From the NCBI GenBank assembly GCA_964492065.1, contig CAZBHH010000010.1:14512-78511 (forward strand): DNA of 64,000 nucleotides. Reading direction: 5' to 3'. The notes beneath the pieces are model-generated. The model searched no databases. It was not told the DNA's origin and saw only the letters and a program-made list of their open reading frames with translations. Made by a program: the position numbers and the translations under genes. This document shows positions 9,962 to 57,766 of this stretch, piece by piece. How positions within the stretch are numbered: position 1 is the first letter of the stretch; each line of letters begins with the position of its first letter. This DNA comes from an uncultured Chitinophagales bacterium. GTDB lineage: Bacteria > Bacteroidota > Bacteroidia > Chitinophagales > BACL12.

Positions 9962-10915
9962 CTATTGCAACCAGTGTTGCAGCGAGGTGTTTAGCAACTT
10001 CTCCAATCGCCTGATATCTTCTGCATAATAGTGTATCAGCCATTGTTTCTCCTGCTCGGAGATTACGGGGATATTCTTTTTGGTATAAATCAGGGATTTG
10101 ATACGTGATTTGAGCGAATCGGGAAACAGCTTCTTTGAGAGGCCGTAAATACCTGTTTGCGTCAACCAGTAATTCAACTTCCCAAACCGCGGCAAACCCG
10201 CTTCGTTGTATTTCAAACTCATATCCAGTTGAAACAGGGGATCCACACCCAGAAAGTCAAACAAGCGCTGCATGGTAGCTGCCGGAGCCTTTTTAAAGTC
10301 GTCGTACAGGATGATGTGCACCTTGTCTTTTGAAAAAATATCCAAATATCTTTTTACCTGCTCGTAATACATCCCCACTTCCAGGTAGAGGTGGCTAACG
10401 CCCCAGCCCTTGTCTTTTTTATCCCGGTCCTTTTGAATCTCAGTCAATAGATCCCCTGTAATTATCTTCCCCAGTTTCAGGTTCATCAGGTATTGTGAAA
10501 ACAACCGCTCCACCGGGTTGCGCAAAATCATCACTATTTTCACCTCAGGCAGCCTTGAATGGATCGCATCGGCAGTACTCGGGCAATACAGGTAGGAATT
10601 GCTAACCTCGCCAATAGCCTTTTGATTTGTTACATCCCGAAACAACCGGGTGTATTGATCCCAGGTGCGGATATGGGCGATGTGAATTTTTTTATCCATC
10701 GGGCCCGCTAAATATTTTTCAATATCGCAGTCTATATCCTGCCGGTAATCCACGTTGAATTTACCAAACTGCATATCCGCATCGCTGAAGAAATTCGTCT
10801 CTTTCACCGGCGACATAAAAATGCCCGGATGCTGATTCAAATATTCATGCAGCGAGGTAGTGCCGGCCTTTACCGCACCCACTACCAGAAATGTGGGAAG
10901 CACATGGTATCTCAT
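9962..10915 (-). CDS. sulfotransferase (Sulfotransfer_1/3-like, PAPS-dependent)
   Basis: 5'-phosphosulfate-binding loop VVGAVKAGTTSL and 3'-phosphate motif LRNPVERLFSQY. I moved the start to the ATG at 10915, which forms an ATGA overlap with the upstream stop. The track start at 10969 lies inside the upstream gene. Confidence 0.85.
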   Translation of the reverse strand: MRYHVLPTFLVVGAVKAGTTSLHEYLNQHPGIFMSPVKETNFFSDADMQFGKFNVDYRQDIDCDIEKYLAGPMDKKIHIAHIRTWDQYTRLFRDVTNQKAIGEVSNSYLYCPSTADAIHSRLPEVKIVMILRNPVERLFSQYLMNLKLGKIITGDLLTEIQKDRDKKDKGWGVSHLYLEVGMYYEQVKRYLDIFSKDKVHIILYDDFKKAPAATMQRLFDFLGVDPLFQLDMSLKYNEAGLPRFGKLNYWLTQTGIYGLSKKLFPDSLKSRIKSLIYTKKNIPVISEQEKQWLIHYYAEDIRRLEKLLNTSLQHWLQ

Positions 10916-11643
10916 CGCAGGAATCTCCAGTAAATTTTGCGCATCACATTCAAACAGTGATATAACCAAAAAGAGTACACCGGCACTTTAAATGTATCCC
11001 ACGAAGCGGGAAAGGTATAGCCCCACTGTTTCATATATGGTCCAAAAATAAATTTGGCTCTGCGCTTCGCCTTATCCGATTCGTAGTATTCCCAAAATGT
11101 CTTTGTCTTTTCTGCCGTCTTGTTGGCCTGCGGAATATCTCTCACTTTTTCGGCGCCCACGAGCTGCAACATTTCAGAAAAATCCTGTTGCAGGTTTTCA
11201 AAGCGAATGATAAAATCGCATCGTTTGTGCTCCATGATACTCCACGAAGCATAAGGGATGGAATACGCCCGCATAAAAAAGTTCTCAAAGGATTCGCCTT
11301 TGGTAATAATGGATTTATACTGCTTCACATTCCACCAGCGCATTATATATTTCCGCAAAAAACCGTGTTTCAGAAACCGCGGATTGGAGTAGCGGTTTTC
11401 ATGATCGGTTTTAAATTTAAAGTAATTGCTCACACAGATATCCATCGGGTTGCGCAATCCGCTGATGACTTTATATTGTTTTTGATCGGGAGTGGCCTGT
11501 TTCATAAAGTCGGTACTGTACAGGGCGTGTTTAAACAATATTTCCCTGCCGTGATAATTGGCAACCAGCTCCTTTGCTATTGCACTGCTCGCCGTTTGCG
11601 GTAATTCGACAAACACATATTTATATGTATCGCTGATAATCAT
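10912..11643 (-). CDS. sulfotransferase family 2-like protein
   Basis: 243 aa with FVELPQTASSAI (a variant of the hPKTAGTS loop), LRNPMDICVSNY (RNP..R..S-like), and IRFENLQQDF...IPQANKT and FGPYMKQWGYTF C-terminal motifs reminiscent of Sulfotransfer_2. Confidence 0.6.
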   Translation of the reverse strand: MIISDTYKYVFVELPQTASSAIAKELVANYHGREILFKHALYSTDFMKQATPDQKQYKVISGLRNPMDICVSNYFKFKTDHENRYSNPRFLKHGFLRKYIMRWWNVKQYKSIITKGESFENFFMRAYSIPYASWSIMEHKRCDFIIRFENLQQDFSEMLQLVGAEKVRDIPQANKTAEKTKTFWEYYESDKAKRRAKFIFGPYMKQWGYTFPASWDTFKVPVYSFWLYHCLNVMRKIYWRFLR

Positions 11644-11645
11644 AG

Positions 11646-12689
11646 TTAGATTTTTGTATTGAAAATAGCCTTATAAATAACTGCCGCTTCGCTGAAATTT
11701 CCTTTTAACAGGTAGGTTGCGCTTCTTATGAGCAGGTGCAAATACAGAAACGGCAACTGCGGGCGGTAATATTTTTTGTACAACTTAATTTTTCCGCGGT
11801 ACTTGTATTGCAGAGCTGTCAGTTGCCATTTACTCTTCTTCGGGCTGTTGCCTGTGCTTGCACCTTGCTTGTGATACACACGGCTCTTCGGTGCAACGCC
11901 CACAGACCATCCTTTGCGCCTGGCTCTGGAAGCCCAGTCGTTCTCTTCATTATATAAAAAGTAGTCTTCACTCATCACCCCGACATCGAGCACAAAGCGC
12001 CTCGAAACAAACATGGAAGCCCCGATGGCATAATTGCATTGCACATCCCCACTATCAAACCTGCCGTCATCTTTTTGCTGTGCGCCAATAATCTTTGACT
12101 TGCCCGTATATTTATTGAAAACGGCGCCCAGGCCCTGTAAGGTGTCGGGCTTGTGATACAATAATAATTTGGAACCGATAATACCCGTTTTTTCCTTTGC
12201 CGACGAAGCGTAGTCAACGAGTTGTTGCAATGTATCGCTTTCGATTACGGTGTCATTGTTCAGCAGCCACATATAATCGAAGCTGTTAAAAATTGCATAG
12301 CGCAATCCGACATTATTGCCTCCGGCAAAGCCGAGGTTCTTATCGCTTTTAATAAACAGGATCGGCTTAATGCCGGCACCGTCAATAAAGCGCAGATGAT
12401 CGGACTCTTCCGCAGATGCCCTTAAGTACACCAACGGCTTTACTGCCGGGGGATTTGAATATTTATACAGTGGGTTTGCGGGTTCCACTTTGGAGAATGC
12501 CTCGCCTTTACACCACTTAATGAGTTGATCCCAGGATGTATTGGTCGAGCAATTTTCGACTACAACTATCTGGTAGCGGGAGTAATTGCTTTTTAAAATA
12601 CTCTCCATACACTCAATCGTATCCTCCCATGTATTGTAGTTTATCAGGATAATACAAACAGATGGTAAATGTGTTTTCAGCGCATCCAA
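11646..12689 (-). CDS. family 2 glycosyltransferase
   Basis: 347 aa with the GT-A N-terminus VCIILINYNTWEDTIECMESI, a DxD-like LLNNDTV motif and FAGGNN. It resembles rhamnosyl/galactosyl-type GT2 enzymes. Confidence 0.85.
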   Translation of the reverse strand: MDALKTHLPSVCIILINYNTWEDTIECMESILKSNYSRYQIVVVENCSTNTSWDQLIKWCKGEAFSKVEPANPLYKYSNPPAVKPLVYLRASAEESDHLRFIDGAGIKPILFIKSDKNLGFAGGNNVGLRYAIFNSFDYMWLLNNDTVIESDTLQQLVDYASSAKEKTGIIGSKLLLYHKPDTLQGLGAVFNKYTGKSKIIGAQQKDDGRFDSGDVQCNYAIGASMFVSRRFVLDVGVMSEDYFLYNEENDWASRARRKGWSVGVAPKSRVYHKQGASTGNSPKKSKWQLTALQYKYRGKIKLYKKYYRPQLPFLYLHLLIRSATYLLKGNFSEAAVIYKAIFNTKI

Positions 12690-13633
12690 TGGCTCAAATC
12701 TTTTTTCAATAAAGCAGACAGTTTCTCTGTGTCTTCTTTATAATAGTTTATAAGAAATGTTTTTTCTTCCTGTGAAATAGTTCCTTTTTCGGCCTTGTCT
12801 TTATACAGCATTTTCACGGTCATCTTTTTTATACCCGAACCCGAAATGCGTTTCATAAGTGGGCGAATGCCGAGTGTGTTCAGTATCCAGGTGAGGTTTT
12901 TATACCGCGGGGTATATACTTCGTTGTACTGAATCGAAGTGTCGGGAACGAATTCCGGATCGGCGCCGATGAATGTGTACAGTTCGTGGATTACATGCTT
13001 GCTGTTATTGCGCAAATCTTCCGAAAAAATAATCTTTACATTACCGGGTGAGAACGTATCGAGATAGCGCTTCACCTGCGCATAATACAACCCGAGTTCC
13101 AGGTACAGATTGGCATTCCCCCAAACTTTGGGTTCGTGCTTCTGATCTTCCTGCAATGCCTGCATGAAGTTGAAAATATTGCTGTTGCCGGTATAGAGGT
13201 TCATGCGGTAATGCGAAAATGCCCGTTGTACCGGGTTGCGCAGTGCAATAATGATTTTAATATCGCCTAATGCTTTTTTTATCTCATAGGCAGCAACTGA
13301 AGAATACAAATAGGAGGTGCTCAGTTCGCCAATTGCTTTCTGACCTTTACAGTTTTTAAACAATAAGGTATAGTGTTCCCAATTCCGGACAAATGCCGCA
13401 TGGTATTCCACATCCATCGAGCCGTGGACATACCCATCAATATCCTGCAGTTTATTGCTTGCAAATGATTTATGAAATAACCCGGTATCGATATCCTTTG
13501 AAAAATAATGCGGTTCTTTAATCGGGCTGAGATAAATTTCGGGATGTTGTTTCAGGTAGTGATACAGCGAGGTAGTGCCGCCTTTATTAGCGCCAACAAC
13601 GATAAAATTCGGTTGCTTAATTGCTGTATCCAT
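12677..13633 (-). CDS. sulfotransferase (Sulfotransfer_1/3-like)
   Basis: IVVGANKGGTTSL 5'-PSB loop and LRNPVQRAFSHY 3'-PB motif. It is collinear with the 9962-10915 product. Confidence 0.85.
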   Translation of the reverse strand: MDTAIKQPNFIVVGANKGGTTSLYHYLKQHPEIYLSPIKEPHYFSKDIDTGLFHKSFASNKLQDIDGYVHGSMDVEYHAAFVRNWEHYTLLFKNCKGQKAIGELSTSYLYSSVAAYEIKKALGDIKIIIALRNPVQRAFSHYRMNLYTGNSNIFNFMQALQEDQKHEPKVWGNANLYLELGLYYAQVKRYLDTFSPGNVKIIFSEDLRNNSKHVIHELYTFIGADPEFVPDTSIQYNEVYTPRYKNLTWILNTLGIRPLMKRISGSGIKKMTVKMLYKDKAEKGTISQEEKTFLINYYKEDTEKLSALLKKDLSHWMR

Positions 13634-13636
13634 GCG

Positions 13637-14629
13637 TTATTTCAATGCGAGCAATCCCTCCGCTACCTCTTGTGAGATACAATATACATTGTTCAATTGT
13701 TCCACATTCGGAATCTTAATCGATTTTTTAATTGAATAATCTTTCAATGAAATCACCTGCACCATATTGGGAACGGATTCGCCGCCGGGGAATAACCCCA
13801 GATACCGCTTGCGTGTTTCTGATACGCCGGCATAGTAATAGCCGAGGTCGCTATCCTGGTCGCCGCCTCGTCCGAAGCCCCGGGTATTTATTGTTTTTAA
13901 AAACTTCCAGTTTTTATCAAATACCTTGAGCTCAAAATGGCCGCTGTCAAAGACCCAATAATTTCCATTGACCTTTCTGACGCTGTGCGGCGCTTTCAGA
14001 TTCAGCGGATAGCGCTTGCGGCTGGTAATATTTACCACGCCGCCGTTGCCCTGGCTTTTGATAAACTTCTGGGCAATGCGCTTCATCAATTGCCTGCCGG
14101 AAGTGTGGTGCACCAAAATATATGTGTCATTATCATAACCGCTGAACACCAGGTTGCAGTGAAACTTATCCACCACTTCCACATCTTCGGCATCCTCGCC
14201 CTCTTCAGGAGCGGAAGATTTAAAATCACTTAAATTAATGCGCAAGGTAACCTTGCCTGCAACGATATCATAACACACGATTTCATCGTGCTTGGTATTT
14301 GAAATCCACAGTCCGTTTCCGATAATACTGATTTCGTGGATATCCGTCAGGTTCGGGATTTGCAAGTCGGTGTAATTCCCCTGTTTCAGGTCAAACTTAA
14401 AAACCGCCACGCTGGAGGCAAAATATAAAATATGCGGCTCGCTGGGGTGTGGCGCCATAGAACTCATTCCCAACTCGCCCCATGAATTGAAATAAGGCAC
14501 CGGAATCACCTCTTCCCGGTGGTTTATGAGTTGGACAGTCTGAATGGTATTGCGATCCAATACCCTGTCGGCGGGATTTGCATTGAGCGATCCTATCACC
14601 AGTAATCTGTTATTCTCTTTTAAAAACAT
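13637..14629 (-). CDS. hypothetical protein, beta-propeller-like; possibly DUF4915/TIGR03032-like
   Basis: 330 aa with no signal peptide. It has repeated beta-strand-rich blocks (GLWISNTKHDEIVCYDI; NGNYWVFDSGHFELKVFD; YYAGVSETRKRYLGLFPG). The family assignment is from memory only. Confidence 0.5.
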   Translation of the reverse strand: MFLKENNRLLVIGSLNANPADRVLDRNTIQTVQLINHREEVIPVPYFNSWGELGMSSMAPHPSEPHILYFASSVAVFKFDLKQGNYTDLQIPNLTDIHEISIIGNGLWISNTKHDEIVCYDIVAGKVTLRINLSDFKSSAPEEGEDAEDVEVVDKFHCNLVFSGYDNDTYILVHHTSGRQLMKRIAQKFIKSQGNGGVVNITSRKRYPLNLKAPHSVRKVNGNYWVFDSGHFELKVFDKNWKFLKTINTRGFGRGGDQDSDLGYYYAGVSETRKRYLGLFPGGESVPNMVQVISLKDYSIKKSIKIPNVEQLNNVYCISQEVAEGLLALK

Positions 14630-14650
14630 AATTTAAAATTCAATTTACGT

Positions 14651-15973
14651 TTAAGCGGCAGTTAATTGCTGTGCTGCCATCTGTTCTTTTCTCTCTTGTA
14701 CTTCCAGCATTTTAAATGCATAGATAATCAAAATAAATATGGCCGTAGAACCCGGCTGTGTGAACAAATTCCCTTTGGCCAAGGAAGTGGCAAAGCAATA
14801 AAATAAAAAGTAAACTGCCGAAATATAATAACTGTCTTTTCTATAATATTTTACATATCTCATAGACCGGAATGCAATGAAAAACTGAAGGTACATAATT
14901 AGGGTTCCAATAATTCCATATGTAATAATAGAACCGAGCAAGCCGATATCGCCCGGCGCTATGGTAGTAATCGGTTCATCGGGGTTATTGTAGTCAGCGC
15001 CAAATTTTCCCACACCGATAAACCACCCGATGGGATAAACAGCCAGGTATGCCAGCACGATGGCCGTCTCCTCCAACCGTGCATCTACAGAGCCCTCGCC
15101 TGTCTCTTCGCCAAAGAATACGAGAACAACGTTGGTGTATTGCTCAATATACCTACCGACAAATTCCGGTAATGCAAAGTACAACGCAGTCATGATTATG
15201 ATAAACAGTGTGCCGCCTACCATCGAATATAGTAAAGTGCGTTTCCAGTTAACCTCGATTAGATAGTACAGGAATATCCCTGCCAGGATGGAGAGCATTA
15301 CAATTCTGCCCTGGTGCAAAAAAAACAAATAGGACAGGTGAATCAATGCAAACAGTATATATTTCTTTTTCCGGTCGGAAATAAATTTTATCATGTAAAA
15401 CAGGCCGAGAAATGCGATAAAATCGACACCGAAGCGAAAGCGATAACCGCCTTTCAGATCGCTAAATCCGACAAACGAATAGTCCAGATACTTTGAAGGG
15501 TCTAAGAATACATAGCAGTATAAATAGAAGATCAGGCATAGCCAGCCTAACCACACCATGGCACGGAAAAAATCCTTGATGACGAAGAACCGATTCTTAA
15601 ATAAGAATATTATTAAAAAGATACCGCCGAGCCCGAACCAGTGCCTCTGCGCCATTAAACCGCCGATAATACCTTGACCTTCGGCAATATTTGCAGCTAC
15701 CGCAGACAATACCGGCAAGGTCAGCATCATCACATAGAGGTAGTTCATTTCGTCCAGTTTTTTTTGAATCAACAGCACGTGAAACAAATACATAAATGAA
15801 AATACGGTGATGAACATATACCAGAACACCTCGAAAATCATGTAGTAATCCGTTAGCGTAGTTTTGGTGAGCAGGCGGGTTGTAAATAAAATAATGAATA
15901 TGAGAATCCATTGCTTCCCCCATACCGAATTCGGTTCTTTGTACATCCCAGGTTCCGGTGTGGTCAGGCTCAT
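14651..15973 (-). CDS. O-antigen polymerase (Wzy)-like polytopic membrane protein
   Basis: 440 aa with at least 10 hydrophobic segments and a larger loop region in the C-terminal half. It sits next to the Wzx-like gene, and its ATG overlaps the upstream stop (TAATG). Confidence 0.6.
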   Translation of the reverse strand: MSLTTPEPGMYKEPNSVWGKQWILIFIILFTTRLLTKTTLTDYYMIFEVFWYMFITVFSFMYLFHVLLIQKKLDEMNYLYVMMLTLPVLSAVAANIAEGQGIIGGLMAQRHWFGLGGIFLIIFLFKNRFFVIKDFFRAMVWLGWLCLIFYLYCYVFLDPSKYLDYSFVGFSDLKGGYRFRFGVDFIAFLGLFYMIKFISDRKKKYILFALIHLSYLFFLHQGRIVMLSILAGIFLYYLIEVNWKRTLLYSMVGGTLFIIIMTALYFALPEFVGRYIEQYTNVVLVFFGEETGEGSVDARLEETAIVLAYLAVYPIGWFIGVGKFGADYNNPDEPITTIAPGDIGLLGSIITYGIIGTLIMYLQFFIAFRSMRYVKYYRKDSYYISAVYFLFYCFATSLAKGNLFTQPGSTAIFILIIYAFKMLEVQERKEQMAAQQLTAA

Positions 15974-16863
15974 TATCTATAGTTTAATTTCCTTTGAATT
16001 AACTGTTCTGTCGCTGCAATATCGCCGCTGAAATATTCGTCAAATAATTTACGGCGAGTTTCCGCATTCAACGCCGCATCTTTTACTTTTTTTGCATTTT
16101 GTTTAATAAAAAATGTGCGCATCCGCTTCCTCGCCGTTTTACCTGGAATAAGGGATTTCAACATGCGCTTTACAAAATTAGGCCTTCTGACCAGATTGCG
16201 CACCATTTCGTTTTTTACTTCAAACGCCTGGTTGCTGTGAATGGCCGTATCCAGTTCCTCATGCGGCAATTCCAGAAAATCCTCTATTCTGCGGATGGTG
16301 GCATCCAGATTGCGTATTATGTCTTCCTCGAAAACGAGGAATAAAAAATTTTCCTTTGGAAAAACGTTTAAAAATTGCTGCAACTGGCCGGCGTATAAAC
16401 TCCGGGACTTGTAGGCATACATTTTTTGTTCCTTTAAATTGGTTTTACGACCTTCCTCCTGCGCCAAAGCTGCTTCAAAATTCAAATCCTCCAGGCCTTT
16501 GCGCTTTGTCATCAGGTAATGGGAATACGCCCTGTCCACAGGATGCCTGAAAATGACCAGGAATTTGATATCCATTCCATAGGTATTGCGCAGGCGATCC
16601 GCTACTTTGCCGTCGAGGATGTAATCCGGATCGAACTCTCCGCATATTTTTTCGCCGTTATAACTGTCGTAAAATGTGGAATTGTAATAGGCTATTCCCT
16701 TGTTGTAGGATTCTTCAAATAAAAAAAACTTCGTTTCCTTCACCGCAGGTAAATACACCTGGCTGTGTTGGCTCAAAATGTCGGCCATAGTAGATGTGCC
16801 TGCCTTCTGCACACCTATACAAAAGAAATTCTGAACCGGTATCTGTTTTTTCAGCTCAGCCAT
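15973..16863 (-). CDS. sulfotransferase (Sulfotransfer_1/3-like)
   Basis: FCIGVQKAGTSTM 5'-PSB loop and FRHPVDRAYSHY 3'-PB motif. Confidence 0.85.
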   Translation of the reverse strand: MAELKKQIPVQNFFCIGVQKAGTSTMADILSQHSQVYLPAVKETKFFLFEESYNKGIAYYNSTFYDSYNGEKICGEFDPDYILDGKVADRLRNTYGMDIKFLVIFRHPVDRAYSHYLMTKRKGLEDLNFEAALAQEEGRKTNLKEQKMYAYKSRSLYAGQLQQFLNVFPKENFLFLVFEEDIIRNLDATIRRIEDFLELPHEELDTAIHSNQAFEVKNEMVRNLVRRPNFVKRMLKSLIPGKTARKRMRTFFIKQNAKKVKDAALNAETRRKLFDEYFSGDIAATEQLIQRKLNYR

Positions 16864-17762
16864 TGCGACAAATCCTTTTGAATTAACTTTTCCAATTGTT
16901 TTATATCCGCACGGTATAACTCAATCAATTGCTTCCGGATAGCAGGGTCCATATCCACTTTGCGCAGATTGTGTTTGAGCAACATATTTTTTGCCCGCAT
17001 TCTCAATTTTTTCTTAGTATCTCTCGACATGAGTTTTCTTAACCCGTTTAACAGCGGGTTGCTCCGGTTTGACAACAATCGTTTAAACCACTTCACCTTC
17101 ATTTCACCGCTTTGATTGCGCTGTTGAATTTCTTCAGGCAACACATCGCTGTCCAATTCCAAAAACTCTAAGACTTGTTTGATAAACCGGTTGGGCTGTT
17201 GTTCCAAATCGTCGAAAAACATGATTTTTACATGTTCAAAATTTTCAAGGTACGCTTTTACCTGCTTATAGTAAAATCCTTTATCGGTGTAATAAAAATC
17301 AAAATGCCGGTTTTCCCGTTTGCGCTGCTCTTCGGCGGCTAAGGCTTCTTCAAAAGTAAGCGGCTCCCGCAAATCGCGGCGATTGTGCATATACTGGGAA
17401 TATGCCCTTTCCGCCGGATTGCGCAGAATGATGAGTATCTTTATTTTTCCCGAATCCGCAACCAGTGATTGCATATTGCGAATACTGTCATCGTAGAAAT
17501 ACAAATACGGTGTTGAGGACTCGCCGATGATTGTCTCATCGTGTCCTTCAAAAAGCTTCAGGTATTCTCCGGGGGATTGTATATATTTATTTCTCGAGTC
17601 GGTATATTCCGGGTTTTTGCCATAGAAACAAAAGAAACTGGGTTCTTTTTGCATTGGCATGAAAATATCGGGATGCCTTGCCAGGTGTTCATGCAGCGCC
17701 GTGGTTCCGCTTCGGGCTGCACCTACAATTAAAAAATTTGGCCATCGGTTTTCCATTTGCAA
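16851..17762 (-). CDS. sulfotransferase (Sulfotransfer_1/3-like)
   Basis: LIVGAARSGTTAL 5'-PSB loop and LRNPAERAYSQY 3'-PB motif. Overlaps the downstream gene by 13 nt. Confidence 0.85.
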   Translation of the reverse strand: MQMENRWPNFLIVGAARSGTTALHEHLARHPDIFMPMQKEPSFFCFYGKNPEYTDSRNKYIQSPGEYLKLFEGHDETIIGESSTPYLYFYDDSIRNMQSLVADSGKIKILIILRNPAERAYSQYMHNRRDLREPLTFEEALAAEEQRKRENRHFDFYYTDKGFYYKQVKAYLENFEHVKIMFFDDLEQQPNRFIKQVLEFLELDSDVLPEEIQQRNQSGEMKVKWFKRLLSNRSNPLLNGLRKLMSRDTKKKLRMRAKNMLLKHNLRKVDMDPAIRKQLIELYRADIKQLEKLIQKDLSQWLS

Positions 17763-17765
17763 TGA

Positions 17766-19148
17766 TTATTTATCTTGTTTTTTCCTGCCTGCCACCTTAT
17801 TGAACAACAGCACCAAATCGCTCAGCGGATTATAAACAGTATTGATACCCATCGTAAAATAAATATGCAATGAGCAACCGAGATTTAATACCGTCCTGGC
17901 AACAGCAGTAGCTATTGCGGCTCCTAACATCCCCATACCGGGGATCAGTAACAGGCTGAGCCCGATGCTCGTAATTGTTGTAAAGATGGCATAGCGCTGG
18001 GTAATCAATTGCCGGCCGGTCATATTCAGTAACTGGGTAACGGGGCCGGTCATGAAATTAATTATCTGGCCGAGGTTAATTACTGCAAAGGTCAAAATTG
18101 CATCCCTGGTTACAAATTCAGAACCATATACGCCCATAATCAATTTCGGAAACAGAAAATATGCTGCCATGATAGGCATGCAAGTCCAGAAGATCAGCCG
18201 GGTGGAAAGGCGCACCGTTTTATTAATTGCCTTTTGATCGTTTTCGCCAAACGCTTCGGCAAACTTCGGCCCTGAAATATTGTTGATTGCTATCAGTGGC
18301 ATAGTGGCAAAGGCCGACATGCGTGCCGCCCCGTTAAATATTCCCACATTATCATCGGTGACGTAGGCAGCTAAAATCAAGGTCCCCAACCAGGTGTACA
18401 GTGTGGTTAAATATTTTGCGGACAGCATGGGCAAAGACACCGCCAGCAATTCCTTACGGCTTATTGTTTTAACCGTTATTTTCTGATAGGGTATAAACTT
18501 CAGCCAGTAATACGCTCCCAGGATAAATGTGAGTATCAGCCCGATTACATACGAAATATTTACTATAATATCTTTAGTTGTAAACAGCAGGCCAATTAAC
18601 AAGATTGCAATGGAAAAGGCTTGTGTGGAAACATTATTAATCCAGGAATACTCTTTAATTTTTTTCAAACCGCGGATACCTTCTTCGATAATACCGCTCA
18701 GGATGAAGAAGAAAATGCCTATGGCAAATACCTGAATATACAGCGTATAAGGTTTGTGATAAACATGTTCGGAAATGATGGGAGCGGTAAAGAACAGGCC
18801 TACGGACAGGAAGAGAGCGAGCGGAATAACCAACTTTATTCCCAGTTGAAATATTTCGTTGACCAAATCATATCGGCCTTGCTTTCTGTACTGTGCAACA
18901 AATCGCGATATTGCCATGTCCACGCCGAACCTTCCAAAAATTCCGATCAGGCTTAGCAGGGAGAAGCAAACCCTGAATACTCCGAAGGCTGCTGCTCCGT
19001 AAAAATTGGTAATTACGAGTTGCTGGGCAAAGCCGAAATTGCGACCGACAATACTGATAAAGAACCCCGAAGCCCCCTTTTTAAAAATCTCGGAGAAGTC
19101 CTGATCTTTAAATTTTTTATTGATTCTTTTTTTAATCTTGCCGAGCAT
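17766..19148 (-). CDS. Wzx-like polysaccharide flippase (MOP superfamily)
   Basis: 460 aa with about 12-14 TM segments. The size and hydropathy pattern are typical of polysaccharide biosynthesis protein / flippase families. Confidence 0.7.
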   Translation of the reverse strand: MLGKIKKRINKKFKDQDFSEIFKKGASGFFISIVGRNFGFAQQLVITNFYGAAAFGVFRVCFSLLSLIGIFGRFGVDMAISRFVAQYRKQGRYDLVNEIFQLGIKLVIPLALFLSVGLFFTAPIISEHVYHKPYTLYIQVFAIGIFFFILSGIIEEGIRGLKKIKEYSWINNVSTQAFSIAILLIGLLFTTKDIIVNISYVIGLILTFILGAYYWLKFIPYQKITVKTISRKELLAVSLPMLSAKYLTTLYTWLGTLILAAYVTDDNVGIFNGAARMSAFATMPLIAINNISGPKFAEAFGENDQKAINKTVRLSTRLIFWTCMPIMAAYFLFPKLIMGVYGSEFVTRDAILTFAVINLGQIINFMTGPVTQLLNMTGRQLITQRYAIFTTITSIGLSLLLIPGMGMLGAAIATAVARTVLNLGCSLHIYFTMGINTVYNPLSDLVLLFNKVAGRKKQDK

Positions 19149-19164
19149 TTTGCCGATACGTTTT

Positions 19165-20235
19165 TTACTTTGACACAGCGCTCTCCTGCATCTCTATCTT
19201 TTCCAGGAATTTATCAGCAAATATTTTAGTAAACATCTCGGCGCCCTGTGTATTCAGGTGCGTTAAATCGAACAGGTTATTGCGGTCGTTGAACTGAGGG
19301 TATTCACTCGGATTGGCAAAAGATATTTTATATTCATCGGGCAATTGATTATACAAGGGCAACAGGTATTCATAGCGGTCGCCCAATCGCTGCGGCAGAG
19401 TAATTACGAATTTAATATCCCTCTCCTTACACGTTTCGATAACTCTTTTTAATAACACTACCATCGTTTTATTTGGGTTGTCCGTTGAGGTTCCATATTT
19501 ATCGAATAATTTCTGACATACTTGTGTGCGGTTATCAATCGTATCCTGAGTGCGCAACACATCGTACCGTATAGATAGATCTCCATTCGGATAATCGTGT
19601 AATTCCTGGTCGAGATTGTAATAACCGTCTTTATTGGGGCCCAGAACCGGCGGTTCCACGTTATAACCGAGATGTTGCTCAAACAATGCGGGGCCAAGGC
19701 CTATCATTAAAGATTTTTCAACAAAGGAGAATGCGTGTATTGCAGGTACTGCGATTTTATTCATCAGTTTATTCTCCGATTCCCAACTCGCCTTCATTAC
19801 CGGTCCGATATTACTCCAGGTGTACCAATACAACATTTCCTTTTTATGGAGATTTTCAGTTCCCATTTTCGTCAACTCACTCAGGTCCATTACAATATAC
19901 TTTATATGGTGGTCGTCCCTTTTAAGTAAATTTTCGATTAAATAAATTGATTGTGGGGTACGATTAGCAGGCAATCCGAAATTAAATGAATTAATATGCA
20001 GCGTTGAATCTGCATTATTGACATATTCATCGAACTCTTTGACATTAAGATGCCGATAGGTTGTTGATGCGCCGATAAACAGAGTGTTAAATGAAGCAGC
20101 ATTTTCTTTATAGTACTGGTATTTGGTATTTAATCTGACGTTTCCCCATGTAAACGGCAATGTATAAACCGCCACCTGGCTCACCGCAAAGTAAAGCAGA
20201 ATTAACAGTGCGATACGTGAAAACAGCTTTTTCAT
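19165..20235 (-). CDS. membrane-anchored SGNH/DltD/AlgJ-like protein, putative O-acyl relay partner of the adjacent MBOAT
   Basis: 356 aa with an N-terminal anchor (IALLILLYFAVSQVAVY) and a C-terminal D..H motif (FDLTHLNTQG) like the catalytic Asp-x-x-His of SGNH-fold enzymes. It lies 5 nt downstream of the MBOAT gene. Confidence 0.45.
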   Translation of the reverse strand: MKKLFSRIALLILLYFAVSQVAVYTLPFTWGNVRLNTKYQYYKENAASFNTLFIGASTTYRHLNVKEFDEYVNNADSTLHINSFNFGLPANRTPQSIYLIENLLKRDDHHIKYIVMDLSELTKMGTENLHKKEMLYWYTWSNIGPVMKASWESENKLMNKIAVPAIHAFSFVEKSLMIGLGPALFEQHLGYNVEPPVLGPNKDGYYNLDQELHDYPNGDLSIRYDVLRTQDTIDNRTQVCQKLFDKYGTSTDNPNKTMVVLLKRVIETCKERDIKFVITLPQRLGDRYEYLLPLYNQLPDEYKISFANPSEYPQFNDRNNLFDLTHLNTQGAEMFTKIFADKFLEKIEMQESAVSK

Positions 20236-20240
20236 ATCTC

Positions 20241-21704
20241 TTAAAACTGAAAGTAAATAAAAGCGGCCTTATTCACCATGGCAAACCAACCGATTAACAA
20301 TAACATTCCCAAATAAAAACTCCAGCGTATTAACAACGGTTTGGAAACAATTCTCTCTTCTATTGTCTGGTCGCCCACTAAATACATTTTAAAATCCATC
20401 ACGAGCAAAAATGCGATAAATATCCAGCTCAAAGCAAACTGCACAATACTGTCGCTACCCTCTAAACTGTTGTGAATAAGGGCATGCGTGGTATTGGGCA
20501 CCGTGAATATACTTTGGATAATGACAAACGATTCGGATACATTTCTTGAACAAAAGAATATATCCGGAATACTCGTCAGGTTAAATACCCAAAACATGGT
20601 TAAAAATGAAGTAAGCCATTTTAGATTCGGCCCAAGATTGAGTTTCAAATTAGGCATAAACTTGTCCGTCGTTCGCCGCAAACTCAATAAAATGCCATGC
20701 GTCACGCCAAATAACACGAATGTCCAGTTGGCGCCATGCCATAAGCCCATCAATGCGAAAGTCAACATGGTGTTATACATCAACCTCCGGTAATTGACAC
20801 GGCTGCCTCCGAGTGGGAAGTACAGGTAATCCCGAATCCAGAACGACAATGTAATGTGCCATCGCTGCCAAAACTCTCGTACTGTTTTTGAGAAATAGGG
20901 TGTCTTAAAGTTATCGGTAAGATTATAACCCATAATTCTCGCCGAACCGATAGCGATATCGCAATAACCCGAAAAATCACAATATACCTGGAAGGCGAAC
21001 ATCCAGGTGGCGAGAACAACGGCAAAGCCGCCGTGTTCACCGGGATTTTGATACACTTCCTGCACAAAAATAGAGAGCCGGTCGGCCACAACGACCTTCT
21101 TAAAGAACCCCCACAGAATTCTGATCAACCCTTCCTTAGCCCGCAGATAATTAAAATCGAATTTTTTCTTCAGTTGGGGCATAAGGTCATTACTGCGTTC
21201 GATAGGTCCGGCTACCAACTGCGGCCAGAATGAAACAAACAATGCGAAATAACCAAAGTGTTGTTCCGCTTTGGCGGTTCCGCGGTATATATCTATGGAG
21301 TAACTTAAAGTTTGAAATGTATAAAACGAAATACCTACAGGCAGGAATAACCGGAATTCCGGCACATTATAAAATATATTGAACTGGTCGAATACCGCTC
21401 TTGCCGAATCATTAAAGAAGTTAAAATATTTAAACAGCAACAAAAGGCCCAGGTTGGAAAAGAGACTTATCAGCATGTACGGCCTTCGCTGTTGCTTTGT
21501 CTCGCACTGGTTCATCTTGAGACCGGTAAAATAGTCTATGGATGTGGAGACGACGATTAAAAATGCATATTCCGGTTTCCAGCACATATAGAAATAATAG
21601 CTGGCCAACAGGGTAAATAACCAACGCCATCTGAAAGGTGTGGCAAAGTACAAGCCGACAACTATCGGCAGAAACAGTAAAAAATGAAAAGAATTAAAAA
21701 TCAT
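20241..21704 (-). CDS. MBOAT-family membrane-bound O-acyltransferase (AlgI/DltB-like)
   Basis: 487 aa, polytopic. Conserved His region FWQRWHITLSFWIRDYLYFPLGGSR and a second His (GLWHGANW), typical of AlgI/DltB. Confidence 0.88.
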   Translation of the reverse strand: MIFNSFHFLLFLPIVVGLYFATPFRWRWLFTLLASYYFYMCWKPEYAFLIVVSTSIDYFTGLKMNQCETKQQRRPYMLISLFSNLGLLLLFKYFNFFNDSARAVFDQFNIFYNVPEFRLFLPVGISFYTFQTLSYSIDIYRGTAKAEQHFGYFALFVSFWPQLVAGPIERSNDLMPQLKKKFDFNYLRAKEGLIRILWGFFKKVVVADRLSIFVQEVYQNPGEHGGFAVVLATWMFAFQVYCDFSGYCDIAIGSARIMGYNLTDNFKTPYFSKTVREFWQRWHITLSFWIRDYLYFPLGGSRVNYRRLMYNTMLTFALMGLWHGANWTFVLFGVTHGILLSLRRTTDKFMPNLKLNLGPNLKWLTSFLTMFWVFNLTSIPDIFFCSRNVSESFVIIQSIFTVPNTTHALIHNSLEGSDSIVQFALSWIFIAFLLVMDFKMYLVGDQTIEERIVSKPLLIRWSFYLGMLLLIGWFAMVNKAAFIYFQF

Positions 21705-21730
21705 ACCCGCCTAATCTCTCTTTAATTTTC

Positions 21731-22873
21731 TCAGGGATTACCATCTTTGGTGCCCGTCTCAGAAATTTCTTTAGATTTATTTTGATATTCCGCAATTAAC
21801 AGTTGCTTTTGTTCCGCTTCTGCTATTGAGTCTTTGTAATACTTTCGTGCGGATAGTATTCCAATACTCAGAAAAGTACCCAGGATAATTCCAAGTATCA
21901 GGAACAACATTTTTTGTTCCTTTTCCTTAATGGTCGAAATGTCTCCGCTATCTACTACAGATATCAGCGGTGTTTTATTCCGCATATCGAATTTTGCCAA
22001 TTCAAGTTGCGTGTACACTGTGCTGTATTCCAGGGTAAGTATTTCAATATCACGCAAAAGGCGGCCCTGGTTTAGCAATCCGGCGGCTTTAACGGTAAAT
22101 GCCGATTGATCCTGAGTCCTGGCCAATGCATCTTCTTTCGCCTGCATCATTAAACGGATTGAATCGGCACGGTCCTGAATTAAGGATACGGTGCTGATTT
22201 CGTTATCTATCTGTGAGAAAATATAAAATTCGGACGCATTACTCGCGAGGTTATCGGCCATAATGCGGGAAAAGTCTCTGTTAAGCGAAGAAAATTCCAA
22301 TTGATTTAAACCTACTTCTTCATTAAAACTAATGGAGAGATCAGCATCTAAAATCTCATCGTAAACCACACTCATTACGCTGTCCTCGTAAACTGTCAGT
22401 GCATTGATATCGCCATGAATTATTCTAAAATCCTTTATTTTTTTCTTTTTAGCCCATTTGGGATACATCTCAATGTAAAAATTCAGCATATAATCCACCC
22501 GGGGTGGTTGCCCTTTTAACTGTATGGTATCTTTTAGCAATAGCGTTTGTTTAATTACCCGCCGCGACTGCACTAACCCGAGGAAATACTCATTCGTAAA
22601 TTCCGATCCGGTGGAAATACCAATTCCAAAAGAACTCGCCAGCGATGCAAGCGACGAGGTGGAAGAACCCTCCACTCCTTTTACCGAGAAATCCGAATGG
22701 GCTATGTAATGCTCAGGGCGCCATTCAATATAATATCGCAGCAGATATCCGGTAACAACAGCGCCAATTAAAATTACCCACCATTTTCTCAACAGGTACT
22801 TCCTGTATTCACCCATCTTTTTAAACAGGTCGCCGATATTTATTTCATCGTTATATGGGCGGTCGTATTGCAT
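21731..22873 (-). CDS. Wzz-like chain-length determinant (polysaccharide co-polymerase) without a kinase domain
   Basis: 380 aa with a two-TM topology (WWVILIGAVVTGYLL near the N-terminus, LFLILGIILGTFLSIGIL near the C-terminus) flanking a coiled-coil-prone periplasmic region. No Walker A motif. Confidence 0.65.
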   Translation of the reverse strand: MQYDRPYNDEINIGDLFKKMGEYRKYLLRKWWVILIGAVVTGYLLRYYIEWRPEHYIAHSDFSVKGVEGSSTSSLASLASSFGIGISTGSEFTNEYFLGLVQSRRVIKQTLLLKDTIQLKGQPPRVDYMLNFYIEMYPKWAKKKKIKDFRIIHGDINALTVYEDSVMSVVYDEILDADLSISFNEEVGLNQLEFSSLNRDFSRIMADNLASNASEFYIFSQIDNEISTVSLIQDRADSIRLMMQAKEDALARTQDQSAFTVKAAGLLNQGRLLRDIEILTLEYSTVYTQLELAKFDMRNKTPLISVVDSGDISTIKEKEQKMLFLILGIILGTFLSIGILSARKYYKDSIAEAEQKQLLIAEYQNKSKEISETGTKDGNP

Positions 22874-22895
22874 ATCAGTAATTAAAGTCTAATTA

Positions 22896-25337
22896 TTATC
22901 TCTTTGAGTTCTGAACCAGGATAAAAATGGTTGCAAACGTTAACACCGATGCACTCATAGTCGTAGCAAACATATTCCAGTCGAATGGTTCTTTTGGAAC
23001 CTCGGGTTCTTCTTCCACTTTCTTTGGCTTGTACGGTACTACCACTTCCGAGCCTTTCACTTTCACCTTGGGATAGAAGTGGAATACCCACAGGAAATTA
23101 TGCGTACGCTTAACCAACCCGTTGGGTTGAACCACATAGGTACGGCTGCGCCGTGCATCATCGCTAAAATTGCGACCGTATTTTTTAACATAGCGCTTTG
23201 CCGATTTCGAACCGTCAAACGGAACGTACACTTCCATTTTTAAAGTATCCTCAAACGGGAAGTCTATTGCACCGCTCAAGGCGACAAGTTCGCCCAGGCG
23301 AGGGACGTTGATGACGTCGCCTTCCTTTAAAATATAATTGTATTTTGAATTGGGATTTTTTACCGCCTTATCGAGGAACAACATGGTCAGGTTGCCGTTG
23401 CCGCGTTTAATTGTCGCACCTTCGGGATAGGCGTATTCAGTGAAACCTCCGGCTCTGACAATCACTTCGGCCAAAGTTTCGGTTTTTGACAGCAGGGTAT
23501 ATACACCCGGATATACCACCTCGCCTTCCAGTGTAATATTCTTCTGAAATTCAAATTCGGGAATGGTTCTGACGAAAACCATATCATAAGGCTGTAATAC
23601 AAAATTCTCCGAAGCGTCTGCTATTTCAAGCGATTTGTTCACATCAATGGTTTCGATTACCACCCGGGTAGGCTCATTGATATTCTTAGCCTCATTAAAA
23701 TTCAGGATACGGGCAATTTCAATTTTGCTGTTGGCAGCATCCACATTTAATCCGCCGGCATAATAGAGCAGATCTTTCAATTTCATGGATTCGTAATAGG
23801 GGAAATCCCCGGGAGTCTTTACCGCTCCTTCAATCTTCACGGTAAAAGTCTGGCGGAATTTTTCCTTGGTAAACACTTCGACCTGGTCGAATTTTGTCAA
23901 CTCAAAATTGAAAGGGGATTTAGGGTTTTTTAATACTTCCTGTAAATTGAATGGAATATAAACCGAATTCAATTTCTCATCTTTCCTGATGAGATATGCC
24001 TTATTCAGATAGGCTTCGTATTTCACCCCTTGTGCTTTTTCAATCAGGTTGGAAATGCGCAGGCCATCACTTAACTCATAGGTGCCGGGATATTTTACAG
24101 CGCCGATAATTGTTACAACATTTTCAACTGTTTCGGGAATTTTGACAAAGGTTATTTTATCGCCGTTAAGCAATATGAAGTCGCTGCCGGAGGCTTTTAT
24201 ACTGTCGTAATTAATATCTACGACAACATTTTCATTATTGATATACCTGCTGATCGTAACAATATTCGTATAGGCGGTCGATTTTAATCCGCCGGCATAG
24301 AACAATAATTTTTCGAGGTTTTCACCTTCTATTAATTCATATTTAAATGGGCGGTTCACTTCGCCGTTAACTTCTACAACACGGCCGATAGGCGGCACTA
24401 CGATATAGTCGTTATCCTGCAGGTAGGTGTCGTCGGAATAGCCGGGATTTGTTAAGAACTGATACACATCCAGGGTCTTAACCACCTGGTTGTTTCTCTT
24501 TACCTGGATATTTCTGATAGAGCCGATATCATTGGGCCCGCCGGCGGCTACCAATGCATTGAACGGCGTATTAATAGAAGCGATATTATACGAACCGGGT
24601 GAAGTCACTTCACCGACTATATTTACTTTTATCGTTTTGGAATAAGTGAGTGATACATCAAAATTTGCGCCGCTCAGATTGATATACGTTCCGAATTTTT
24701 GTTTTAATAACTGTTTGGTTGCCGCATACGTCAATCCCTGTAAATAGATTCTGCCAATGCCAAATGGATTAATATATCCATCGTCGCTCACCGTGAAATT
24801 TTCATTATAACTGGAGACGCCTCCCCAAACGGAAACGGAAATCTGATCGCCTGCACCCATAATATAATTATTGCTGGGCTTGGAGTTGGGGGCTCTTTCA
24901 TATAGTGAAATAGTGGAATTTCTAAAAATGCCCTGGCCATAAATGGCTGCGGCCACATTGGGAGTCTCGTTTGCCTGGGAATCCGGCGATACCGAATCTG
25001 CTTTTGGAACGGTGTCCAGCAATTGTTCGGCGGCGGCGGCAATATTCTGTTGCTGCACATCGCCAAGCATCTCAATGGCGGTAGAGCTTGTACCCGAACC
25101 GGATTCGCCTAATGCGGAAAGTATGGCTGAAACTTCCGAATCGCTAAAGCCCATGGATTTCAACGAACTCTCAGAAACCATCGACGGACTGACAGCCGCA
25201 GGTGATACCCCCGCCGGCGTACCCGAGCCCTGACCGAATGGATCGGTATTTATCAAGTTTGTGTTCGCCTGTCCGAAAATGTTGTTTGAAAATGCCAGAG
25301 TTAAGATCAAAAGCGCAAACGAAGAAAATTTCTTCAT
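22896..25337 (-). CDS. Wza-like polysaccharide export protein with multiple SLBB domains
   Basis: 813 aa with a signal peptide, a Poly_export-like motif (YIMGAGDQISVSVWG) and several SLBB-like repeats (G.V..PG.Y....). A C-terminal hydrophobic helix (MFATTMSASVLTFATIFILV) is analogous to the Wza outer-membrane helix. Confidence 0.8.
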   Translation of the reverse strand: MKKFSSFALLILTLAFSNNIFGQANTNLINTDPFGQGSGTPAGVSPAAVSPSMVSESSLKSMGFSDSEVSAILSALGESGSGTSSTAIEMLGDVQQQNIAAAAEQLLDTVPKADSVSPDSQANETPNVAAAIYGQGIFRNSTISLYERAPNSKPSNNYIMGAGDQISVSVWGGVSSYNENFTVSDDGYINPFGIGRIYLQGLTYAATKQLLKQKFGTYINLSGANFDVSLTYSKTIKVNIVGEVTSPGSYNIASINTPFNALVAAGGPNDIGSIRNIQVKRNNQVVKTLDVYQFLTNPGYSDDTYLQDNDYIVVPPIGRVVEVNGEVNRPFKYELIEGENLEKLLFYAGGLKSTAYTNIVTISRYINNENVVVDINYDSIKASGSDFILLNGDKITFVKIPETVENVVTIIGAVKYPGTYELSDGLRISNLIEKAQGVKYEAYLNKAYLIRKDEKLNSVYIPFNLQEVLKNPKSPFNFELTKFDQVEVFTKEKFRQTFTVKIEGAVKTPGDFPYYESMKLKDLLYYAGGLNVDAANSKIEIARILNFNEAKNINEPTRVVIETIDVNKSLEIADASENFVLQPYDMVFVRTIPEFEFQKNITLEGEVVYPGVYTLLSKTETLAEVIVRAGGFTEYAYPEGATIKRGNGNLTMLFLDKAVKNPNSKYNYILKEGDVINVPRLGELVALSGAIDFPFEDTLKMEVYVPFDGSKSAKRYVKKYGRNFSDDARRSRTYVVQPNGLVKRTHNFLWVFHFYPKVKVKGSEVVVPYKPKKVEEEPEVPKEPFDWNMFATTMSASVLTFATIFILVQNSKR

Positions 25338-25357: not shown

Positions 25358-25365
25358 CAAAGATA
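25358..25365 (-). promoter_or_regulatory. candidate -7 box (TATCTTTG on minus strand) upstream of the polysaccharide operon
   Basis: Plus-strand caaagata is the reverse complement of TATCTTTG, 20 nt upstream of the Wza-like ATG (25337). No well-spaced -33 TTG was seen. Confidence 0.4.
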
Positions 25366-37159: not shown

Positions 37160-37183
37160 ATTTTAAGCGCTTTATACTAATTT

Positions 37184-54812: not shown

Positions 54813-54835
54813 TTCGCTGTTTTCAAATTATCCTA

Positions 54836-55849: not shown

Positions 55850-55860
55850 GTAATCGGTTT

Positions 55861-57744: not shown

Positions 57745-57766
57745 TGTTAAGTGTTTAATATGAATC

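Follow-up and report, generated by a model that had tools for sequence, protein, structure and literature searches.

A thirteen-gene Wzx/Wzy-type operon with five sulfotransferase-like genes in an uncultured Chitinophagales bacterium: a probable locus for a sulfated surface polysaccharide

Sulfated polysaccharides are regarded as rare in bacteria outside the cyanobacteria (PMC8205485, PMC13390465), and the few clusters which have been defined genetically encode two or three sulfotransferases each (PMC8205485, PMC13390465, PMC11641403). The xss cluster for synechan in Synechocystis sp. PCC 6803 comprises two sulfotransferases, eight glycosyltransferases, Wzx, Wzy and a polysaccharide co-polymerase (PCP), the outer-membrane polysaccharide export (OPX) protein being encoded elsewhere; in the published model, sulfation takes place on the cytoplasmic lipid-linked unit (PMC8205485). 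Among environmental bacteria, Pontiella sulfatireligans, which has a putative cluster for a sulfated glycosaminoglycan (GAG), has been suggested to produce sulfated exopolymers resembling GAGs, of the kind detected in sludge (PMC7356697). Sulfated GAG-like glycoconjugates are found throughout the extracellular polymeric substances (EPS) of wastewater sludge, with their producers and sulfotransferases left unnamed (PMC10483923, PMC7356697). Here, a 64,000-nt stretch of an uncultured Chitinophagales bacterium (GenBank assembly GCA_964492065.1, contig CAZBHH010000010.1, positions 14,512 to 78,511; the window) was analysed. It carries a run of 13 minus-strand genes, five of them sulfotransferase-like, amid genes for Wzx/Wzy-dependent assembly. 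An initial annotation of this DNA had called the presumed product essentially uncharacterised in Bacteroidota; in line with this, a literature search returned no paper describing such sulfotransferase clusters in Bacteroidota or Saprospiraceae.

The operon (9962-25337, minus strand) is read here as one half of a Wzx/Wzy-dependent pathway for a capsule or exopolysaccharide, namely the half responsible for decoration, flipping, polymerisation and export; the product would be multiply sulfated and O-acylated. We consider this moderately probable, whereas the narrower claim that a sulfated glycan of some kind is made is judged likely. A sulfated and O-acylated capsule or exopolysaccharide had also been proposed in the initial annotation; four sulfotransferases, the pathway context and synteny speak for it, but the operon does not contain the complete pathway. 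The region holds exactly 13 open reading frames (ORFs), all intact, with junctions from the first to the last gene of +22, +26, +5, +16, +3 to +9, -13, -1, +21, +3, -13, +2 and -4 nt. Start codons were taken from independent gene calls on identical metagenome contigs (L001, L002; L numbers denote loci), and the 13 same-strand ORFs and the range of -13 to +26 nt given previously were borne out by both the ORF map and these starts. The window belongs to the JGI contig Ga0130016_10000352 (100.8 kb), and identical operons were found in Logan assemblies.

Four of the sulfotransferase-like proteins, termed STa to STd, are canonical, and on sequence grounds their assignment as carbohydrate sulfotransferases of the type using 3'-phosphoadenosine-5'-phosphosulfate (PAPS) is solid. 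STa (16851-17762; 303 aa from TTG, 301 aa from the ATG at 17756) carries the 5'-phosphosulfate-binding (5'-PSB) loop RSGTTAL, the segment KEPSFF and the 3'-phosphate-binding (3'-PB) motif RNPAERAYS. The corresponding segments are KAGTSTM, KETKFF and RHPVDRAYS in STb (15973-16863; 296 aa), KGGTTSL, KEPHYF and RNPVQRAFS in STc (12677-13633; 318 aa), and KAGTTSL, KETNFF and RNPVERLFS in STd (9962-10915; 317 aa from ATG). Like all operon genes, they lie on the minus strand. Scores against the Pfam model Sulfotransfer_1 were 49.7-56.9 bits (STa 56.9, STb 53.3, STc 49.7 and STd 56.9; gathering cutoff 22) and those against Sulfotransfer_3 were 42.4-65.7 bits (STb 51.3, STd 65.7; cutoff 27), whereas NCBIfam models matched none of the five sulfotransferase-like proteins.

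PDB sequence searches were run for STd, STa and STc, and the best relative was the uncharacterised Alicyclobacillus sulfotransferase 3rnl (E = 2.7e-48, 2.5e-50 and 5.2e-45, respectively), followed in rank by the sulfotransferase domain of the heparan sulfate enzyme NDST1 (STa, E = 2.6e-11) and by the heparan sulfate 3-O-sulfotransferases (3-OSTs). In a four-way alignment of STa to STd, G18 and T19 of the 5'-PSB loop, K38-E39 followed by xx(F/Y)F, and R132, P134, R137 and S140 of the 3'-PB motif are invariant. The 5'-PSB loops line up with KCGTSS (3rnl) and KGGTRA (3-OST-3), and KGGTTSL...EPHYF of STc aligns with KGGTRAL...EPHFF of 3-OST-3A1; the E-x-H-F-F segment of the 3-OST structures carries the catalytic Glu, acting as the base, and the catalytic His. 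Arg in place of the 5'-PSB Lys, as in STa, is also seen in tyrosylprotein sulfotransferases. The pairwise identity of STa to STd is only 23-43%, i.e., they are old paralogues.

A hydrophobic segment at the N-terminus is absent from all five sulfotransferase-like proteins, and equally from the family 2 glycosyltransferase (GT2) and the DUF4915 protein of the operon. STa to STd would accordingly reside in the cytoplasm and, because PAPS is cytoplasmic as well, sulfation would precede flipping by Wzx. The same order of steps had been deduced in the initial annotation from missing signal peptides; the hydrophobicity profiles agree with it, and the order as such is what we infer from them.

The fifth protein, ST2 (10912-11643; 243 aa), diverges from this pattern. 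Its P-loop PQTASS (in PQTASSAI) has no Lys, a K38-H39 dyad follows ~22 residues downstream of the loop, and a 3'-PB-like motif reads RNPMDICVS. ST2 passed the Sulfotransfer_2 cutoff of 22 marginally (25.2 bits), precomputed PF03567 matches are present in some of its homologues only, and a PDB sequence search with ST2 gave nothing meaningful. An AlphaFold2 (AF2) model built from 43 homologues had a mean predicted local distance difference test (pLDDT) of 90 and a strand-loop-helix arrangement at both PQTASS and RNPMDICVS. In a Foldseek search of the PDB with this model, PAPS sulfotransferases (SULT2A1, SULT7A1, NDST1, oestrogen sulfotransferase) took all of the first 46 ranks, though with weak scores (best E = 2.5e-3, template modelling (TM) score ~0.3).

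In place of the canonical 5'-PSB Lys, ST2 has Q16 and the 43 members have Q (20), L (10), R (10), H (2) or F (1), never K; among 150 divergent representatives R, H and Q predominate there, and K occurs in ~4. The remaining loop, T-(A/G)-(S/T)-(S/T), is conserved, and the family shows little or no variation at T17, the K38-H39 dyad and R64-N-P-x-D68..V71-S/T72. The K-H dyad may indicate a different catalytic arrangement. The family is small: a search of 1.84 billion proteins yielded 350 representatives at E ≤ 1e-10. ST2 is the best-conserved gene of the operon with 71-79% identity across species, on par with trmD. Homologues are mostly annotated as hypothetical in metagenome-assembled genomes (MAGs) at NCBI and lie nearly always amid other sulfotransferases, sometimes beside cysCDN. 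Sequence and model together make ST2 a probable non-canonical sulfotransferase.

All ten PAPS-binding motif strings quoted in the initial annotation are present in the five translations, and all five proteins exceed Pfam gathering scores, the fifth only marginally and with Sulfotransfer_2. Its count of five PAPS sulfotransferases holds for four, on profile, PDB and catalytic-residue evidence; the fifth is non-canonical, with a marginal Pfam score and a weak fold match.

For the analysis of conservation, one genome per GTDB species was scanned with the ST2 family, which gave 79 loci; these were annotated by phmmer using the window proteins and Pfam-verified extra queries. The same gene order, adjoining rpsP-rimM-trmD, was found in 14 species-level Chitinophagales/Bacteroidota MAGs (L003-L016), as far as the contigs reach. 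Every sulfotransferase has a 1:1 orthologue in the syntenic MAGs. As these orthologues share 48-79% identity and the paralogues 23-43%, the data fit five sulfotransferase genes which are maintained individually and would have distinct specificities. Several NCBI MAGs under the labels Chitinophagales or Bacteroidetes bacterium encode proteins of at least 90% identity, one of these proteins on a 3.78-Mb contig.

A rearranged cluster with five to six sulfotransferases was found in Flavobacteriales/Cryomorphaceae (L017-L030, L036, L038, L047, L111, L113). It encodes WecG, a Sulfotransfer_3 protein, an STd-like protein, ST2, Wzy, two to three STa-like proteins, Wzx and a phosphoglycosyl transferase (PGT) of the Bac_transf family, while Wza, a 756-aa Wzc-like PCP and a family 4 glycosyltransferase (GT4) are transcribed divergently. 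A disaccharide repeat, made by the PGT and one glycosyltransferase, was considered for this cluster and dropped, as GT4 follows Wzc. Homologues from Parafilimonas, Ca. Trichofilum, Chloroflexota/Limnocylindria, Zixiibacteriota and Acidimicrobiia likewise have four to six sulfotransferases in their neighbourhood. A cluster of five is thus uncommon in systems that have been characterised, yet metagenomes contain others.

The assembly and export genes give the pathway context. The first gene of the operon encodes an OPX/Wza-like outer-membrane export protein (22896-25337; 813 aa) with Poly_export (64.3 bits), SLBB in five stretches (142 bits) and SLBB_2 (120 bits), a signal-like N-terminal segment and a hydrophobic helix at the C-terminus. 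The Wzx-type flippase of the MOP superfamily (17766-19148; 460 aa) scored 67.1 bits with Polysacc_synt, 50.3 with MatE and 43.6 with Polysacc_synt_3 and has multiple hydrophobic segments. A short Wzz-like PCP (21731-22873; 380 aa), which has no kinase domain, is a tentative assignment: GNVR reached 22.4 bits at a cutoff of 27.7, an NCBIfam model for tyrosine-kinase PCPs matched a segment weakly, and a C-terminal transmembrane stretch lies at 322-340. The putative Wzy-like polymerase (14651-15973; 440 aa) has at least nine hydrophobic segments and a Wzy_C (PF04932) score of 26.5 bits at a cutoff of 31.7, and it had no match in NCBIfam; its orthologues take the equivalent position in the 14 MAGs and are also present in the Flavobacteriales clusters. 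From the set of Wzx, Wzy, Wzz and Wza named in the initial annotation, Wzx and Wza are hence clear in Pfam, whereas the assignments of Wzy and Wzz stay below threshold.

Two adjacent genes are predicted to serve O-acylation. The MBOAT O-acyltransferase (20241-21704; 487 aa; Pfam MBOAT 84.7 bits) resembles AlgI, PatA and DltB and contains the segment WHITLSFWIRDYLYFPLGG, in which the conserved His (RWHITLSFW) presumably has the functional role it has in DltB and AlgI. Next to it, a membrane-anchored, DltD-like partner of the SGNH fold (19165-20235; 356 aa) is encoded, which had no Pfam or NCBIfam match and only 45 detected homologues. Their alignment shows no change at G55, S57 or H326 and at least 90% conservation at D323, so Ser57, Asp323 and His326 form a candidate triad. 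The AF2 model of this protein (pLDDT 89) shows an N-terminal helix at 2-25. Its best fold matches were DltD (7dxm/6pfx, probability 1.0), then PatB and TesA, with modest values (E ~1e-3, best 7e-4; TM ~0.36). The MBOAT/SGNH-like pair noticed earlier is therefore real. With a membrane-anchored DltD-like partner for the MBOAT protein, the pair would, by analogy, act outside the cytoplasm and not on the cytoplasmic repeat unit, and O-acylation would follow flipping.

Initiation and elongation enzymes may be encoded at a second locus, which is present in five operon-bearing MAGs (UBA3022, NJ_NJASGE3bin.10, SSF59, CTOTU1226 and USST_maxbin.122; loci L031-L035 and L041, further L086, L088 and L096). 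Its gene order (L031, 7674-18678) is a Sulfotransfer_3 protein, GT4, an ST2 paralogue of 48-49% identity, a GMD-like dehydratase/epimerase, a WecG/TagA-family transferase, a GHMP kinase, an SIS isomerase, a nucleotidyltransferase, a HAD phosphatase, a Bac_transf PGT and a Wzi-like capsule-assembly protein, the last one below threshold. No Wzx, Wzy or OPX was found in the examined stretch of L031. The locus resembles a pathway for GDP-heptose or 6-deoxyheptose combined with the initiation and elongation enzymes which the operon lacks. Since the two gene complements are complementary, the loci may cooperate.

With respect to PAPS, look-ups with the paralogues P0059 and P0045 revealed clusters adjoining cysC and cysD. 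In six cases (L030, L038, L040, L047, L111 and L114) the sulfotransferase cluster abuts an adenosine-5'-phosphosulfate kinase gene (cysC) and a gene for a 301-aa PAPS_reduct-family protein of CysD size; all but L114, whose contig is short, additionally encode a GTP_EFTU protein that at 427 aa has the size of CysN (L047 11201-14024; L111 12350-14299; L114 3197-4711). These clusters occur in Flavobacteriales/Cryomorphaceae MAGs and in metagenome contigs. This is direct evidence for a physical link between multi-sulfotransferase clusters and PAPS synthesis in other Bacteroidota.

A pathway consistent with these data would proceed as follows. A PGT encoded elsewhere, such as the WbaP-like Bac_transf protein at the second locus of the sister genomes, would start a repeat unit linked to undecaprenyl diphosphate, and glycosyltransferases including the GT2 of the operon would add the sugar or sugars; the partner locus of the sister genomes would contribute GT4, the WecG/TagA-family transferase, GDP-heptose-type genes and two further sulfotransferases. 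On the cytoplasmic face, STa to STd, which resemble heparan sulfate N-sulfotransferases and 3-OSTs, would sulfate the lipid-linked unit, provided that the cell supplies PAPS, and ST2 probably takes part. Wzx would then flip the unit, the Wzy-like protein and the short PCP would polymerise it, the MBOAT protein and its DltD-like partner would O-acylate the polymer outside the cytoplasm, and the 813-aa OPX protein would export it.

Several findings weigh against this pathway. Neither a Bac_transf nor a WecA-type PGT is encoded in the whole 64-kb window and GT2 is the single glycosyltransferase of the operon, so the operon alone cannot make a polymer. The claim of the initial annotation that the locus builds a polysaccharide is accordingly supported for decoration, flipping, export and, tentatively, polymerisation, but not for the initiating PGT and further glycosyltransferases. 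The link of the second locus to the operon is one of complementarity only, and when the L031 paralogue was used to seed a scan of metagenomes, 25 loci resulted, none of them from Ga0130016; as the scan matches exact peptide words, this does not count as a negative. Genes for cysC, cysD or cysN were found neither in the window nor in ~7 kb and ~10 kb past its ends, and no PAPS-synthesis gene lies beside the Chitinophagales loci. Furthermore, the Wzy_C and GNVR scores are under the Pfam thresholds, Wzy_C includes O-antigen ligases, and ST2 is without the canonical Lys, with weak support from Pfam and Foldseek.

Some of these points are shared by other explanations. The sub-threshold Wzy_C score and the breadth of PF04932, a family spanning polymerases and O-antigen ligases, would also suit an operon for a lipopolysaccharide O-antigen or another lipid- or protein-linked glycan, with the 440-aa protein as O-antigen ligase or polymerase and the 380-aa PCP as a Wzz regulator; PCP-1 Wzz proteins are short and have no kinase domain, just as the PCP found here. 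Yet the operon starts with an 813-aa OPX gene (Poly_export and five SLBB stretches), and OPX proteins serve the export of capsules and exopolysaccharides, not O-antigen ligation. In addition, in the Flavobacteriales relatives the shared genes are accompanied by Wza and a Wzc-like PCP of 756 aa, and the second locus in sister MAGs ends in the sub-threshold Wzi-like protein. We therefore consider the O-antigen explanation improbable. Still less probable is that the sulfotransferases act on lipids, small molecules or proteins and that their position in the operon reflects co-regulation. Bacterial members of Sulfotransfer_1/3 do include lipo-oligosaccharide and small-molecule enzymes. Such non-polysaccharide acceptors are documented for Nod factor and mycobacterial cases (PMC8205485), and acceptor specificity cannot be read from the sequences. 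However, the closest characterised relatives of STa to STd act on heparan sulfate, a carbohydrate, the five genes stand among those for Wzx, Wzy and GT2 with only a few nucleotides at the junctions, and the same sulfotransferase types travel, rearranged, with Wzx, Wzy and a PGT in Flavobacteriales.

The number of sulfating enzymes is less certain than their pathway. If ST2 were a scaffold or regulator binding PAP(S), or catalysed some other chemistry, only four enzymes would sulfate and there would be fewer sulfation positions than genes. The exchange of the Lys for Q, L, R, H or F, with no K among the 43 close members, suits this idea, as do the marginal Pfam score, the empty PDB sequence search and the low TM score. 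On the other hand, ST2 exceeds all other operon proteins in conservation, it keeps T17, K38-H39 and R64-N-P-x-D..V-S/T72 in a model whose topology fits at both sites, its 46 top fold matches are all PAPS sulfotransferases, and its homologues cluster with other sulfotransferases and at times with cysCDN. We regard a non-catalytic ST2 as possible but doubtful; it would be compatible with the sulfated capsule or exopolysaccharide pathway proposed above.

The two remaining genes of the operon had been passed over in the initial annotation, as had the absence of an initiating PGT. GT2 (11646-12689; 347 aa from TTG) matches Glycos_transf_2 from residue 12 with 51.1 bits and Glyco_tranf_2_3 with 41.4 bits, and it shows a weak match to a rhamnosyltransferase subfamily of NCBIfam. 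The TTG start was favoured, since the shorter call from ATG would cut the first beta-strand of the domain. The DUF4915/TIGR03032-like protein (13637-14629; 330 aa; DUF4915 38.2 bits, cutoff 35; TIGR03032 partial) is predicted to be cytoplasmic and is probably a beta-propeller, judging from a hint at a six-bladed propeller in Pfam and a weak PDB match to NHL repeats. It has 68-71% identity in the syntenic MAGs, and the literature search gave nothing relevant on DUF4915. In one syntenic MAG (L009, Rand_18-Q3-R56-63_BAT3C.178), a frameshift or an assembly error has divided the DUF4915 gene into two ORFs, and the last sulfotransferase gene is separated from rpsP by an inserted CLC chloride-channel gene (L009 7002-7998 and 11686-13080).

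A TAnnTTTG box, i.e., a -7 promoter box of the Bacteroidetes type (TATCTTTG, 25358-25365, minus strand), lies 21 nt before the first ATG (25337), as noted previously, and is found before the first of the 13 genes only. In total, TAnnTTTG occurs at chance level in the window (54 sites, 57.6 expected). Eleven of the 54 sites, however, are located 5-70 nt upstream of same-strand gene starts, where 1.4 were expected (~8-fold, P ~1e-7). Judged by its placement relative to gene starts, TAnnTTTG thus behaves as a working promoter element in the source genome, which backs the box ahead of the operon. A σ70 promoter scan gave values at shuffle level and was uninformative, as expected in Bacteroidota. 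Hairpins resembling terminators are not in excess within the gene run (22 compared to 17.8 ± 4.5 in shuffled sequence). Given the tight junctions, the lone promoter box and no surplus of terminator-like sites, a single transcription unit of 13 genes is plausible.

The operon is flanked by housekeeping genes, with metG upstream (25551-27623) and rpsP-rimM-trmD plus an ORF of the size of rplS downstream. Its G+C content is 0.41-0.44 compared to 0.47-0.49 in the flanks; 10001-24000 is lower by 3-7 percentage points. A low G+C content is common in surface-polysaccharide loci and compatible with horizontal exchange.

Elsewhere in the window, two very large ORFs lie next to each other on the minus strand (33311-40906), one of 1282 aa without Pfam match and one of 1240 aa with CarboxypepD_reg and TonB Plug domains, in which a barrel was not detected. 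A type IX secretion neighbourhood (52203-60136) contains genes for two cargo proteins with CHU_C tails (Calx-beta/Ig), a PorP/SprF gene and a gene for an OmpA/PD40 protein. On the same contig, ~0-3.3 kb past the right end of the window, a module of a methyltransferase, a GT2 and a Polysacc_synt flippase was found (L085 10735-13976).

The isolate names of the carrier Chitinophagales and Flavobacteriales MAGs suggest that they come from wastewater plants. Conserved and rich in sulfotransferases, the locus is a concrete and testable candidate for the origin of the sulfated polymers in sludge EPS. It is conceivable, though we hold it to be rather unlikely, that clusters of this kind (five sulfotransferases plus two at the partner locus; five to six in Flavobacteriales) are the source of the sulfated GAG-like material measured in the EPS of activated and granular sludge. 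The product would then be a Wzx/Wzy-made, heptose-containing and O-acylated polymer of short repeats, sulfated at most free hydroxyls to a charge density like that of heparin, with one step carried out by the Lys-less family with the K-H dyad. If this were true, producers could be assigned to the sulfated polymer fraction of sludge, and Bacteroidota would count among the bacteria making sulfated polysaccharides. Glyco-engineering would gain a set of soluble carbohydrate sulfotransferases of the heparan sulfate type from bacteria, and a non-canonical sulfotransferase family would be defined.

Compared with known systems, sulfotransferase-bearing Wzx/Wzy clusters are no novelty, and all component families of the operon are standard. 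The nearest likeness is to the xss cluster (PMC8205485), which is also a Wzx/Wzy-type exopolysaccharide cluster containing PAPS sulfotransferases of different subfamilies (PF00685/PF13469/PF03567) and which likewise has part of its machinery encoded off-cluster. The two differ in their proportions, i.e., two sulfotransferases to eight glycosyltransferases in xss compared to five sulfotransferase-like proteins to one glycosyltransferase here. Moreover, in the operon OPX is inside and the PGT outside, an MBOAT gene and a gene for a DltD-like partner are present, and the host belongs to the Bacteroidota, not to the Cyanobacteria. Synechan has been verified genetically and chemically, whereas the locus described here is known from its genes.

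Judged by cluster description only, two further systems are similar. The cluster wps-1 of Actinoplanes missouriensis (PMC13390465) is of the Wzx/Wzy type and has two sulfotransferases, one of them of the heparan sulfate type, which is fewer than found here. The cluster for the sulfated capsular polysaccharide of Vibrio sp. KMM 8419 (PMC11641403) has three sulfotransferases and adjoining cysNDC genes, as in L047 and L111, but it is of the ABC-transporter (Kps) type with fewer sulfotransferases, and the window operon has no adjoining PAPS genes. The Pontiella cluster (PMC7356697) is likewise a polysaccharide cluster of an environmental bacterium with PF13469 sulfotransferases. It differs in having one sulfotransferase in the cluster (three in the genome) and eight glycosyltransferases, and in belonging to the Verrucomicrobiota; its sulfated polymer was measured by a dye assay, unlike any product of the present locus.

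At the protein level, the heparan sulfate NDST and 3-OST enzymes (PDB 1nst, 1t8t and 3uan) and 3rnl share with STa to STd the motif (K/R)xGT(T/S), the Glu in E-x-x-(F/Y)-F and RxPxxRxxS. The animal enzymes are only distantly similar (E = 1e-7 to 1e-11); they are lumenal in the Golgi and act on the finished polymer, whereas STa to STd are predicted to be soluble and cytoplasmic. An MBOAT gene adjoining the gene of a membrane-anchored SGNH-fold protein is also known from DltB/DltD, PatA/PatB and AlgI/AlgJ-AlgX; in contrast to Dlt, the operon has neither DltA nor the DltC carrier system, and its partner protein has no Pfam match. What distinguishes the present locus is its occurrence in Bacteroidota, the 5:1 ratio of sulfotransferases to glycosyltransferases within the operon, the presumed split into two loci, the MBOAT and DltD-like pair, and the Lys-less Sulfotransfer_2-like family.

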